DNA of 64,000 nucleotides. It comes from an uncultured archaeon. GTDB taxonomy: Archaea; Aenigmatarchaeota; Aenigmatarchaeia; QMZP01. The stretch covers positions 6,133 through 70,132 of the forward strand of contig CAZCGK010000002.1 in assembly GCA_964498245.1 (NCBI GenBank), written 5' to 3'. Below, piece by piece: positions 13,663 through 64,000 of the stretch (positions within the stretch are counted from its first letter, which is position 1; each line of letters starts with the position of its first letter). Below the pieces are notes generated by a model. The model did not search any database and was not told the origin of the DNA. It saw only the letters and a list, made by a program, of their open reading frames with translations. Position numbers and translations under genes: made by a program.

Positions 13663-13664
13663 AA

Positions 13665-13790
13665 CGCTGGGAGAGGGACTCGAACCCTCAAGCCCTTGCG
13701 GGCACACGCTGTCTGTTTTTCTATCATCTCACGCTGGGAACCACCCAGCATGACTCCAAGCGTGCTCCTTACCAATTCGGACATCCCAGC
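13665..13790 (-). tRNA. tRNA-Ser (anticodon GGA) with a roughly 42-nt intron after position 37 and a long variable arm
   Basis: Manual fold: acceptor GCTGGGA/TCCCAGC, 3-bp D stem, anticodon stem CACGC/GCGTG with loop TTGGAG[intron]A, variable arm TGCCCGCAAGGGCT, T arm GAGGG-TTCGAGT-CCCTC, discriminator G. No CCA is encoded. Confidence 0.65.
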
Positions 13791-13863
13791 ATCTGCTTAT
13801 AAATTTTTTATGGAAGATATGAAACCTTCGAATAAATATGATTCCGCTTTGAATATAAAAGAT

Positions 13864-33797: not shown

Positions 33798-33835
33798 AAA
33801 TAAAAATTAATAGTTGTAAATTAAAGAAGACTAAT

Positions 33836-33975
33836 GCCGGTGTAGCTCAGCGGTTAGGTTGAAACCACGTGAAGAGCGCCAGACTCATAACATGAAGTGC
33901 AAAGGTTATGAGTGTTGAGGGTTTTAAACCCTGTGAGAAATCTGGAGGTCGCGGGTTCAAATCCCGCCACCGGCA
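33836..33975 (+). tRNA. tRNA-Met/Ile2 (anticodon CAT) with two introns (D-loop and 37/38)
   Basis: Manual fold: acceptor GCCGGTG/CACCGGC, D stem GCTC/GAGC interrupted by a 16-nt insert, anticodon stem CCAGA/TCTGG with loop CTCATA[about 50-nt intron]A, T arm GCGGG-TTCAAAT-CCCGC, discriminator A. G1-C72 argues for an elongator. Confidence 0.65.
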
Positions 33976-33995
33976 TCATTTCTATTCAGGTTGCT

Positions 33996-41239: not shown

Positions 41240-41407
41240 CGCCGGGGGCAGGATTTTCTATTCCTCGCAGAGACAGTGAGATGAACATAATGAATAGCTT
41301 ATTCTAATTCTCTGCGAAGATTCGAACCTGCACGGGGCAAAGCCCCACGTGGTTTCTTGCAGGAAATTAACTCGAGCCACGCGCGTTAGCCGTTCCGCCA
41401 CCCCGGC
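41240..41407 (-). tRNA. tRNA-Ser (anticodon CGA) with two introns (37/38 and 59/60)
   Basis: Manual fold: acceptor GCCGGGG/CCCCGGC, 3-bp D stem, anticodon stem CGTGG/CCACG with loop CTCGAG[intron], long V-arm GGGGCTTTGCCCC, T arm GCAGG-TTCGAA[about 65-nt intron]T-CCTGC, discriminator G. Confidence 0.6.
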
Positions 41408-56398: not shown

Positions 56399-57682
56399 AT
56401 GCTGGATATAAAACTTATTCGTGAAAGGCCGGAGGTTGTGAGAGAAAATCTCATCAAGAGGAATGAAAAAGAAAAGCTTGAATGGATCGATAAAATTATA
56501 GAATATGATAAGAAGTGGAGAGAATCCCTTCAAAAACTAGAATCCCTTCGGCACAGAAGAAACATTATCACAGAGAAAATAGCGAAATTCAAAAAGGAAG
56601 GAAAAGATACAAGCAGCCTGATAAAAGAGGTTAAAAGCATCCCAGAGAAAATAAAAGATCTGGAAGAAAAAACCCAGAAATACAGAGAAATGATAGATTT
56701 TTATCTTAAAAATCTTCCCAACCTGCTTCATGAATCTGTTCCCTTGGGTAAGGACGAAAATGATAATATTGAAATAAGAAGATGGGGGAGGCCGCCTAAA
56801 TTCGATTTCAAACCCAAAAACCACCTTGAAATTGCAGAAGGACTGGGTCTGATAGATGCAGAGAGAGCAGCAAAGGTCTCTGGATCCAAATTTTTCTATA
56901 TCAAGGGTGAACTCGTTCTTTTGGATATTGCAATTCAGAAATACGCCATAGATTTCCTAATAAAAAAAGGTTTTACACCAGTGGAACCTCCATTCATGCT
57001 GAGAAGGAAACCATACGAAGGTGTGACCGATCTGAAGGATTTTGAAAATGTGATGTACAAAATAGAAAACGAAGACCTTTATCTCATAGCTACATCTGAA
57101 CATCCTATAGCAGCTATGTTTATGAACGAGGTTCTGGAAAAGGATAAGCTACCTCTGAAATTCTGCGGAGTTTCTCCCTGCTTCAGGAAAGAGGCAGGTT
57201 CTCATGGTAAGTACACAAAAGGTCTTTTCAGAATGCATCAGTTCAACAAGATAGAGCAATTTGTTTTCTGTCTTCCAGAAGAAAGCTGGAAAATTCACGA
57301 AGAATTGCAGAAGAATTCCGAAGAGCTTTATCAGGGTTTGGGTTTGCATTACCGTGTGGTAAACGTTTGTACAGGAGATATAGGTCCTATAGCAGCAAAG
57401 AAATACGATATAGAGGTATGGATGGCTGATGGAAAGTTCAGAGAGAGCGGAAGCAATTCCAATTGCACCGACTATCAGGCAAGAAGACTGAATATACGAT
57501 ACCGGGAAAAGGAAGGTCTTCCACCCGCAGGTTTTGTCCACACCCTTAACAACACCGCCCTGGCCACAAGCAGAATAATGGTTGCAATTCTTGAACAGTA
57601 TCAGCAGGAAGATGGATCTGTGGTAATACCCAAGGTTTTAAGACCGTATATGAATGGAATGGATGTTATATCAAAATGGTGA
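56399..57682 (+). CDS. serS: seryl-tRNA synthetase
   Basis: It has an N-terminal coiled-coil arm and class II motifs. Its length is 427 aa. Confidence 0.9.
   Translation: MLDIKLIRERPEVVRENLIKRNEKEKLEWIDKIIEYDKKWRESLQKLESLRHRRNIITEKIAKFKKEGKDTSSLIKEVKSIPEKIKDLEEKTQKYREMIDFYLKNLPNLLHESVPLGKDENDNIEIRRWGRPPKFDFKPKNHLEIAEGLGLIDAERAAKVSGSKFFYIKGELVLLDIAIQKYAIDFLIKKGFTPVEPPFMLRRKPYEGVTDLKDFENVMYKIENEDLYLIATSEHPIAAMFMNEVLEKDKLPLKFCGVSPCFRKEAGSHGKYTKGLFRMHQFNKIEQFVFCLPEESWKIHEELQKNSEELYQGLGLHYRVVNVCTGDIGPIAAKKYDIEVWMADGKFRESGSNSNCTDYQARRLNIRYREKEGLPPAGFVHTLNNTALATSRIMVAILEQYQQEDGSVVIPKVLRPYMNGMDVISKW
57513..57676 (+). repeat. direct repeat copy 1 (164 bp; 3' end of serS)
   Basis: It is identical to 58413-58576. 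Confidence 0.9.
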
Positions 57683-63101: not shown

Positions 63102-63236
63102 CCAGTATTATCAAATGAAAGCCCTTCGGGGTCTGAATAGTTAATTAAAGGCAATAGATATTTAAATGTTCTTCAAGTATTGAAAATAAAAGCATGCTAA
63201 GGAATAATTATATAAACTCGACTTCAAATTTTCCAT

Positions 63237-64000
63237 ATGATACGTCTCAATTTTCATCCAGAAAGGGGAATTTGGTGTGAAGACAGACAGAGCCTTGATA
63301 AATTAAGAAAAAACTTTTTTGGAATAGAGAGAGGCGGAAAGATTTTTCTCTATCCAGAAGAAACACTTTATATTTTAAATTTCATGAACGGTGTATGCAT
63401 CTACAAAAACAGAAAAATGAGCTTTAGCGATCTGGCCACATTTTTTTCAAAGGAAGATCCGAGACTTTTTATACATTACAATGCCTTCAGAGACTGGAGG
63501 GATAGAGGACTTATAATAAAAAGAATAGATTCCGTTCAGGTTGAGCCTAAAAAAAGGAAAAAAGAGAAAAAATATCCGGCAAAAAGCATCGAAAAAGTGG
63601 AAATAAAAGCAAAGGCTTACTGGTATCCGAAATCAATGTTTTCTATTATAGATGATAAACAGACAGGAAAAAGATTGTTTCAAAACTACTGGTTTGGACA
63701 GTATGGTGTGTACAAACAGGACAGAGGAGACCTTTTGAAGCTGGATTTTTTCGAAACTGTGTTTTTAGCAAAGCATTTCGGGATGAAGGTGATAAATACA
63801 AACACAGGAAAAGAAATAAGCTGGGAGGAAGTATTCAGAAGTGTGGTGAAAGAGAGAGACTATGCAAAACAACACTACAATGTTTATGAGGATTGGAGGC
63901 TGAAGGGGTACGTAGTGAAAACAGGCTTCAAGTTCGGATCGCATTTCAGAATATATTTTCCCGGTGCATCACCTGGAAGAACCGGTGAAAAATGGATACA
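63237..64000 (+). CDS. endA: tRNA-splicing endonuclease (EndA), partial at the window end; catalytic domain after about residue 230
   Basis: It has the catalytic signature GYVVKTGFKFGSHFRIYFPG near the 3' end of the window. The long N-terminal region suggests a duplicated or multi-unit form. Confidence 0.7.
   Translation, partial: MIRLNFHPERGIWCEDRQSLDKLRKNFFGIERGGKIFLYPEETLYILNFMNGVCIYKNRKMSFSDLATFFSKEDPRLFIHYNAFRDWRDRGLIIKRIDSVQVEPKKRKKEKKYPAKSIEKVEIKAKAYWYPKSMFSIIDDKQTGKRLFQNYWFGQYGVYKQDRGDLLKLDFFETVFLAKHFGMKVINTNTGKEISWEEVFRSVVKERDYAKQHYNVYEDWRLKGYVVKTGFKFGSHFRIYFPGASPGRTGEKWI

Follow-up and report, generated by a model that had tools for sequence, protein, structure and literature searches.

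Which kind of archaeal tRNA-splicing endonuclease (EndA) is encoded by a gene that is cut off at the end of the available sequence, and is this enzyme suited to the unusual introns of the tRNA genes that lie near it? The question is raised by a stretch of 64,000 nucleotides from an uncultured archaeon of the Aenigmatarchaeota (GenBank assembly GCA_964498245.1, contig CAZCGK010000002.1, positions 6,133 to 70,132), here called the window, whose end interrupts an open reading frame named endA. A preliminary description of the window had placed a catalytic motif after about 230 residues of this frame and had proposed a duplicated or multi-unit endonuclease. The interrupted frame is the first two thirds of the gene of a known enzyme type, the epsilon2 tRNA-intron endonuclease. 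Its product is very probably a 396-residue epsilon protomer built of three units, alphaN-alpha-betaC, and a new member of the epsilon2 type.

The open frame occupies 63237–64000 of the forward strand, comprises 254 codons and runs off the window end without a stop. Seven codons upstream of the ATG at 63237 there is an in-frame stop, with zero alternative start codons in between, and the conserved N-terminus of the homologs (MIELKFDP...) supports this ATG as the probable start. The motif YVVKTGFKFGSHFRIYFPG (63909–63965, +) was found where it had been described, at residues 225–243, and it contains the pocket residues K232 and R238 together with the catalytic Tyr240 (codon 63954–63956, +). The fragment alone matches the Pfam families tRNA_int_endo_N (E 1.3e-8, residues 137–199) and tRNA_int_endo, the catalytic C-terminal domain (E 1.2e-11, residues 212–251; the match reaches residue 298 in the full-length protein), and it matches PDB entry 4FZ2_A with E 1.9e-54 over residues 10–254. 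The catalytic motif is therefore real and not a chance resemblance. Several EndA models of NCBIfam are also matched by the fragment, each below its full-length cut-off. The final two bases of the window, CA, only open the codon of His255, so that the window holds the catalytic tyrosine without the catalytic histidine and lysine.

The full-length sequence was read from L001, a public contig (SRR7051320, Logan assembly) that overlaps the window by 5588 bp with 0 mismatches and extends 10 kb past its end. The gene lies at L001:4825–6015 and has 396 codons, of which codons 1–254 and 2 bases of codon 255 are in the window and the remaining 142 codons are beyond it. A database protein of 396 residues (P0001) is 100% identical across the 254 residues of the window. 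Another entry (P0121, ENA, 410 aa) belongs to the 90% cluster of the same protein and has 14 extra residues, which may come from a different start-codon call. Once the gene was complete, its comparison with the EndA families, as proposed in the preliminary description, gave epsilon2.

The closest known system is the epsilon2 endonuclease (VSEN) of Candidatus Micrarchaeum acidiphilum ARMAN-2, which has been the subject of several studies (Fujishima 2011; Hirata 2012; Miyata 2025) and is represented by the crystal structures 4FZ2 and 9W2K (PMC3488258, PMC12397907). From residue 10 to its last residue the complete endA product aligns with residues 12–387 of 4FZ2/9W2K (HMMER, E 6.7e-100), and it shares 43% identity with the ARMAN-2 enzyme over 387 columns with 15 gap positions only (BLASTP). 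An AlphaFold2 model of the full protein, built from 49 homologs, has a mean pLDDT of 88.4 and a pTM of 0.84. When this model was compared to the PDB with Foldseek, the best matches were 4fz2_A (TM-scores 0.86/0.89) and 9w2k_B (0.84/0.86), followed by the alpha-beta fusion of Methanopyrus kandleri (0.57), the alpha'2 enzyme of Archaeoglobus fulgidus (0.49) and single-unit enzymes (about 0.35).

Unit borders were transferred from those published for ARMAN-2 (PMC3488258). The alphaN unit (residues 1–95; 63237–63521, +) consists of a degenerate EndA N-terminal domain followed by one helix and a strand, and has no catalytic residues. It aligns with residues 2–97 of ARMAN-2 alphaN, ends in an invariant RDWRDRGL motif and has pLDDT values of 92–97. 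It is also an internal repeat of residues ~155–228 (26–27% identity, E 5e-5 to 3e-4, tblastn), gives a sub-threshold match to Pfam tRNA_int_endo_N when searched alone, and in the Foldseek comparison of the AlphaFold2 model corresponds to the alphaN unit of 4FZ2. Linker 1 (residues 96–124; 63522–63608, +) is Lys-rich (PKKRKKEKK), carries an invariant Y113-P114 and matches ARMAN-2 residues 98–125; pLDDT falls to 69 here. The complete catalytic alpha unit (residues 125–292) aligns to ARMAN-2 residues 126–288, and its first 130 residues (125–254; 63609–63998, +) are in the window, as delimited by the Pfam domains and the alignment. The window itself thus covers alphaN, linker 1 and 130 residues of alpha. 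Linker 2 (residues 293–306) leads to the betaC unit (residues 307–396), a structural remnant that has the C-terminal domain only and, searched alone, gives a sub-threshold match to the C-terminal part of the Pfam catalytic-domain model.

The full protein has one complete catalytic domain only. The expectation of a fused multi-unit endonuclease (alpha2 or epsilon2) in place of a short alpha4 enzyme was borne out by this three-unit architecture. The alternative wording, a duplicated enzyme, holds as far as several units are present; it does not hold as a plain duplication, since the protein is composed of an N-terminal half-unit, a complete catalytic unit and a C-terminal half-unit. The N-terminal region had been named as a place where an unrelated fused domain might be found; repeat, Pfam and structural evidence agree that its ~95 residues are a degenerate EndA N-terminal domain, and the alignment of the protein is not that of a simple alpha4 catalytic subunit.

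The functional residues of ARMAN-2, the roles of which are known from mutagenesis and crystal structures (PMC3488258, PMC12397907), were compared in an alignment of 49 homologs. The catalytic triad Y240/H255/K286 corresponds to ARMAN-2 Y236/H251/K282, is invariant and is located in the central alpha unit only. The bulge-base clamp R279/W393 (ARMAN-2 R275/W384) is likewise invariant, and both of its residues lie beyond the window end. K232, R238, D366 and E368, equivalent to ARMAN-2 K228, R234, D357 and E359, are invariant as well, and the ARMAN-2 salt-bridge pairs K228-D357 and R234-E359 have their counterparts in K232-D366 and R238-E368. The specific loop (the equivalent of ASL/L2; residues 157–166, GVYKQDRGDL; 63705–63734, +) aligns to ARMAN-2 residues 158–168. 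Its pair Y159/K160 corresponds to ARMAN-2 Y160/K161; Y159 is invariant, and position 160 is Lys in 38 and Arg in 11 of the 49 sequences. Every ARMAN-2 residue proven important by mutagenesis or crystallography therefore has a counterpart, invariant at all positions but 160. Because all these residues and the end-to-end match are present, the product is read as a three-unit alphaN-alpha-betaC protomer, and not as an alpha4 subunit or a tandem repeat of the alpha'2 type. What is established for it is its sequence, its architecture, its fold and the conservation of its residues.

The likeness to ARMAN-2 extends to the length class (396 aa, with ARMAN-2 given as 390 aa), to the order alphaN-linker-alpha-linker-betaC, and to the triad, the R/W clamp, the Y-K loop, the insertion around the catalytic His and the residues of the L10 loop and pocket. 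There are also differences. The window protein is closest to genomes labelled Aenigmatarchaeota, and so differs in phylum. It is longer by ~6 residues in the N-terminal domain of alpha and by ~5 in the region of linker 2 and the beginning of betaC, and its linker 1 is strongly basic, whereas that of ARMAN-2 is acidic. Finally, the window protein is known from sequence and model alone.

By homology with the crystallised ARMAN-2 enzyme, we infer how the product dimerises, which chemistry it uses and how broad its specificity is. The alphaN and betaC units would pack into a pseudo-subunit beside the catalytic unit, so that each protomer would mimic an alpha-beta pair. Two protomers would form the epsilon2 homodimer, with two active sites spaced like the two bulges of the bulge-helix-bulge (BHB) motif, and the dimer contact would be made by the acidic L10 loop (D366, E368) entering the basic pocket of the partner (K232, R238). 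Each active site is predicted to cut one bulge of the BHB by RNase-A-like chemistry, in which Y240, H255 and K286 would catalyse in-line attack by the 2'-OH to give a 2',3'-cyclic phosphate. R279 and W393 would clamp the flipped bulge base, and the Y159-K160 loop would grip the scissile site by its ribose and phosphate. It is this loop that, in ARMAN-2, enables cleavage of relaxed BHB and bulge-helix-loop (BHL) introns at non-canonical positions. It is needed for activity there (PMC12397907, PMC3488258), and the ARMAN loop grafted onto A. fulgidus EndA suffices to widen the specificity of the latter (PMC3488258). Likely substrates of the window enzyme are the five introns in three tRNA genes of the window, including those in a D-loop and a T-loop.

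The window has five tRNA genes, three of which have introns, and two of the five introns are at non-canonical sites (D-loop, T-loop). The link that the preliminary description had drawn between the enzyme and intron-rich tRNAs of the same window is thus upheld. Default ARAGORN and the Rfam gathering scan under-report tRNAs here. ARAGORN with intron search found four tRNA genes, two of them intron-less tRNA-Val, and an Rfam tRNA scan loosened to E <= 1 found no further tRNA in the window.

The gene for tRNA-Ser(GGA) (13664–13791, −) has a 43-nt intron at the canonical position 37/38 (ARAGORN), with 3 of 4 pairs in the central helix and no contiguous h'. Within this intron (13711–13753, −) lies a hairpin, GCUGGG UGGUU CCCAGC, and in its two arms the acceptor-stem sequences of the tRNA itself (GCUGGGA / UCCCAGC) recur.

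The gene for tRNA(CAU) (33836–33975, +) has two introns, one of 17 nt in the D-loop (non-canonical, relaxed BHB), with its junction predicted to follow nucleotide 20a, and one of 50 nt at 37/38 (strict hBHBh'). The Rfam tRNA model aligns the whole of 33836–33975 with insertions of 19 nt (D-loop) and 52 nt (anticodon loop), and once 17 and 50 nt are removed, a clean cloverleaf of 73 nt remains, which is tRNA-Met(cat) according to ARAGORN. The original ARAGORN call over 33835–33977, a tRNA-Ser(tga) with one intron at 32/33, was rejected in favour of this Rfam-supported two-intron tRNA. The tRNA is of the elongator Met or Ile2 type; it is not initiator-like, because it has G1:C72 and lacks a G-C triplet in the anticodon stem.

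The third gene, for tRNA-Ser(CGA) (41240–41407, −), has two introns as well, of 17 nt at 37/38 and of 67 nt in the T-loop (~59/60, non-canonical). It was missed by both ARAGORN with intron search and Rfam and was found via a T-loop motif search and reading of the sequence. Spliced in silico it has 84 nt and is called tRNA-Ser(cga) by ARAGORN. It lies just upstream of both tRNA-Val genes on the same strand. Other T-loop motif matches (11273, 11419, 50760) were discarded, as their sequence reads as coding or non-tRNA.

All five introns, with hand-placed splice sites, were examined for the BHB motif by a rigid custom scoring. A strict hBHBh' motif is present in one of them, the 50-nt intron of tRNA(CAU), in which 4 of 4 central pairs form, the bulges are 3 nt long and flanking helices are present. 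Each of the remaining four has 3 of 4 central pairs, and three of these, the D-loop and T-loop introns included, also lack a contiguous outer or inner helix. In three introns (scored within 13665–13790, −; 33856–33872, +; about 41254–41320, −) the unpaired fourth position of the central helix is a G-A mismatch beside the 5' bulge, which may be a lineage-specific recognition feature or an artefact of splice-site placement. A relaxed-intron profile of this kind has been described in organisms whose enzyme is of the (alpha-beta)2 or epsilon2 type (PMC5829648). Because only one intron has the strict motif, the intron set suits a broad-specificity enzyme, and the tRNA introns of the window, as modelled, appear to fit the substrate profile of such organisms. 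The more general statement that fused forms of the enzyme are associated with relaxed introns needs to be narrowed. It stands for epsilon2; among the enzyme types, only (alpha-beta)2 and epsilon2 have been tied to relaxed introns, and two-unit alpha'2 enzymes are strict for the BHB (PMC5829648), so that 'fused forms' is too broad a class.

Several points weigh against reading the gene as a working epsilon2 enzyme of broad specificity. His255 and Lys286 are outside the window, and both depend on the identity of the overlapping contig L001. The oligomeric state and activity attributed to the product are drawn from homology. The specific loop is one residue shorter than that of ARMAN-2 (GVYKQDRGDL versus GTYKVSEHGNL), and AlphaFold confidence is below 50 at residues 159–163 and 231–233, so that the loop geometry is not established. 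The BHB assessment depends on rigid scoring and on modelled splice sites, and the exact sites are tentative, with an ambiguity of 1–3 nt at the ends of the D-loop and T-loop introns. A search for a second endA-like gene, which the preliminary description had proposed, was negative as far as it reached: the full protein and each single unit, run by tblastn against the ~74 kb made up of the window and the following 10 kb, recovered just the gene itself and its internal alphaN/alpha repeat.

In the light of these points, the explanation that survives best besides the favoured one accepts the epsilon2 architecture and denies the broad specificity. The enzyme would then cleave near-canonical BHB motifs only, and the unusual insertions in the tRNA genes would be modelled wrongly or dealt with in another way. 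Broad specificity is indeed deduced by analogy, and the shorter loop and the Arg at position 160 in 11 of the 49 homologs favour caution, as the ARMAN-2 K161R variant keeps its activity only partly (PMC12397907). Moreover, specificity is not set by subunit type alone, as can be seen from the M. kandleri enzyme (PMC5829648). On the other hand, Y159 never varies among the homologs, a basic residue always occupies position 160, and the grafting result for the ARMAN loop cited above speaks for the loop as a determinant. The cloverleaf requires that the D-loop and T-loop insertions be removed, the tRNAs spliced in silico are recognised by ARAGORN, and there is no other endonuclease gene nearby in the ~74 kb searched by tblastn. 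A narrow specificity is for these reasons regarded as improbable.

Far less weight is given to an enzyme of the alpha'2 type. Such enzymes, as in Archaeoglobus, Haloferax and Thermoplasma, are a tandem of two complete alpha-like units, act as homodimers and are strict for the canonical BHB. Like the A. fulgidus alpha'2 enzyme (1RLV, 2GJW; Cluster II Euryarchaeota), the window protein is a fused multi-unit protomer that would act as a homodimer with the same chemistry. It has a long EndA-like region before the catalytic motif and matches A. fulgidus EndA in two stretches (E 5e-18 for the catalytic unit). It also shows weak matches to the NCBIfam PRK09300 models for two-unit enzymes of ~290–350 aa, but these score 28–60 bits against cut-offs of 292–518. 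In alpha'2 enzymes both units are complete and the catalytic one is C-terminal, whereas here the N-terminal unit ends after its N-terminal domain, without a C-terminal subdomain, and ~100 residues (betaC) follow the catalytic unit. TM-scores are 0.41–0.49 to alpha'2 structures versus 0.86 to epsilon2, and the Y-K specific-loop insertion, absent from A. fulgidus alpha'2 (PMC12397907), is present. Membership in alpha'2 is contradicted by the way in which the protein aligns with 4FZ2 from end to end and matches its fold.

The two other EndA types do not fit either. The whole 171-residue chain of the Methanocaldococcus jannaschii alpha4 enzyme (1A79) aligns to the central alpha unit (residues ~160–308, E 7e-21). 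This enzyme, however, is a ~180-aa single unit forming a homotetramer, with no alphaN, betaC or specific loop, and at 396 aa the window protein falls outside the ~170–180 aa of a single-unit alpha4 subunit. The (alpha-beta)2 enzymes of Crenarchaeota/TACK and Nanoarchaeum (e.g., Aeropyrum pernix, 3AJV/3P1Z) resemble it in design: a catalytic unit is paired with a structural unit, Trp takes the place of the second clamp Arg, and an inserted loop has a key Lys near the active site (PMC3488258, PMC5829648). They have broad specificity for relaxed BHB motifs (PMC3488258, PMC5829648), as is predicted by analogy for the window enzyme. They are encoded by two genes and form a heterotetramer with a CSL loop unrelated in sequence, whereas the window enzyme has a single fused gene, and its structural pseudo-subunit is contributed in part by the N-terminus and in part by the C-terminus. 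In Foldseek, the matches to (alpha-beta)2 EndA span only ~170–210 alignment columns, and no separate alpha or beta copy was found in the ~74 kb, which sets the single fused gene apart from this type.

The idea of an inactive or structural paralog, such as a beta-like accessory subunit, for which one might cite the two degenerate units out of three and the 74-kb range of the search for other endA genes, is scarcely credible given the invariance of triad, clamp and dimerisation residues across the 49 homologs and the activity of the homologous ARMAN-2 protein alone as a homodimer (PMC3488258).

The epsilon2 protomer thus preferred for endA has many relatives. A protein database search found 962; the best 120 of these are mostly full length (391–439 residues), and those with names are tRNA-intron lyases or endonucleases of Aenigmarchaeota or 'Nanoarchaeota' metagenome-assembled genomes (MAGs). 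In a scan of one genome per GTDB species, 334 genomes encode a relative. Among the best 80 of them, for which titles and identities were collected, ~40 carry the label Aenigmatarchaeota, two complete chromosomes (CP070801.1 and CP070804.1) among them, and 8 carry that of Micrarchaeota. In the same best 80, the top matches (54–72% identity) are overwhelmingly titled Candidatus Aenigmatarchaeota, and the genomes titled Micrarchaeota have identities of 44–48%. By these relatives, the window most likely belongs to an archaeon of the Aenigmatarchaeota.

Some genomes depart from this pattern. A genome titled Micrarchaeota (L053, JAADIF010000047.1) encodes an EndA 59% identical to the window protein, i.e., in the Aenigmatarchaeota range, and two genomes titled 'Nanoarchaeota' (L006/L061) encode EndA at 62–68% identity. 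These values may reflect loose naming of MAGs or lateral transfer.

The published range of the type is narrower and, in the specialist papers searched, is limited to Micrarchaeum, Mancarchaeum and their close relatives. A survey of 2018 stated that epsilon2 'has only been discovered' in ARMAN-1 and ARMAN-2, added Mancarchaeum and called the origin elusive (PMC5829648). A review of 2019 had ARMAN-2 as its sole epsilon2 entry, and a structural paper of 2025 aligned the specific loop among five Micrarchaeota only. The literature searched for an epsilon2 EndA in Aenigmarchaeota or DPANN had no report of the wider range, which is not proof of absence. On balance, and by a slight margin, we lean to the view that the epsilon2 type and the 'ARMAN-specific' loop are not confined to Micrarchaeota, and that Aenigmatarchaeota, a second DPANN phylum, have this enzyme as their standard EndA. 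This extension of range is modest and apparently unreported.

In the window, the endA gene is divergent from rpl6 and rpl32e, and a DHH-family gene is downstream. When the neighbours (L6, L32e, DHH phosphoesterase, YbjQ and threonyl-tRNA synthetase (ThrRS)) were sought in 80 related loci, they were common only to the closest relative (L002), and there is thus no conserved operon. The intergenic region between rpl6 (−) and endA (+) has 135 bp (63102–63236). Read from the sequence, it has a TATA-box-like TTATATAA (63208–63215, +) ~25 nt upstream of the endA ATG, a candidate archaeal promoter for a leaderless endA mRNA. Two other signals were seen. On the recovered contig, an ARAGORN tRNA-Gly(acc) with a 10-nt intron (L001 7361–7452, −) is probably a false positive, as it overlaps the called YbjQ-family gene. 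In the window, CRISPR-DR45, an Rfam family of CRISPR direct repeats, has a weak, sub-threshold match at 56446–56469 (−), with E 0.54 and 29 bits where the gathering score is 37.

As a gene, endA is ordinary, because the epsilon2 enzyme kind is well established in structure and mechanism, and such proteins are already annotated as tRNA-intron lyases in databases. Its value lies in widening the known range of the type, as the same architecture, loop and interface residues are found across genomes labelled Aenigmatarchaeota. These genomes offer a larger sample for the origin of the three-unit fusion, and for whether the Tyr-Lys loop always accompanies non-canonical introns. The window provides candidate enzyme-substrate pairs, one endA gene with tRNA genes that have D-loop and T-loop introns, for broad specificity outside ARMAN-2. 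It also illustrates that standard tRNA finders miss such genes, with one of its five tRNA genes invisible to ARAGORN and Rfam. Micrarchaeota and Aenigmatarchaeota are usually assigned to different DPANN sub-clusters. A shared epsilon architecture would span these sub-clusters and would consequently call for an old origin with losses, or for lateral transfer. If the wider range is true, the epsilon2 architecture either predates the split of the lineages or moved between Micrarchaeota and Aenigmatarchaeota, and both its 'elusive' origin and its co-evolution with disrupted tRNA genes would become testable by phylogeny.

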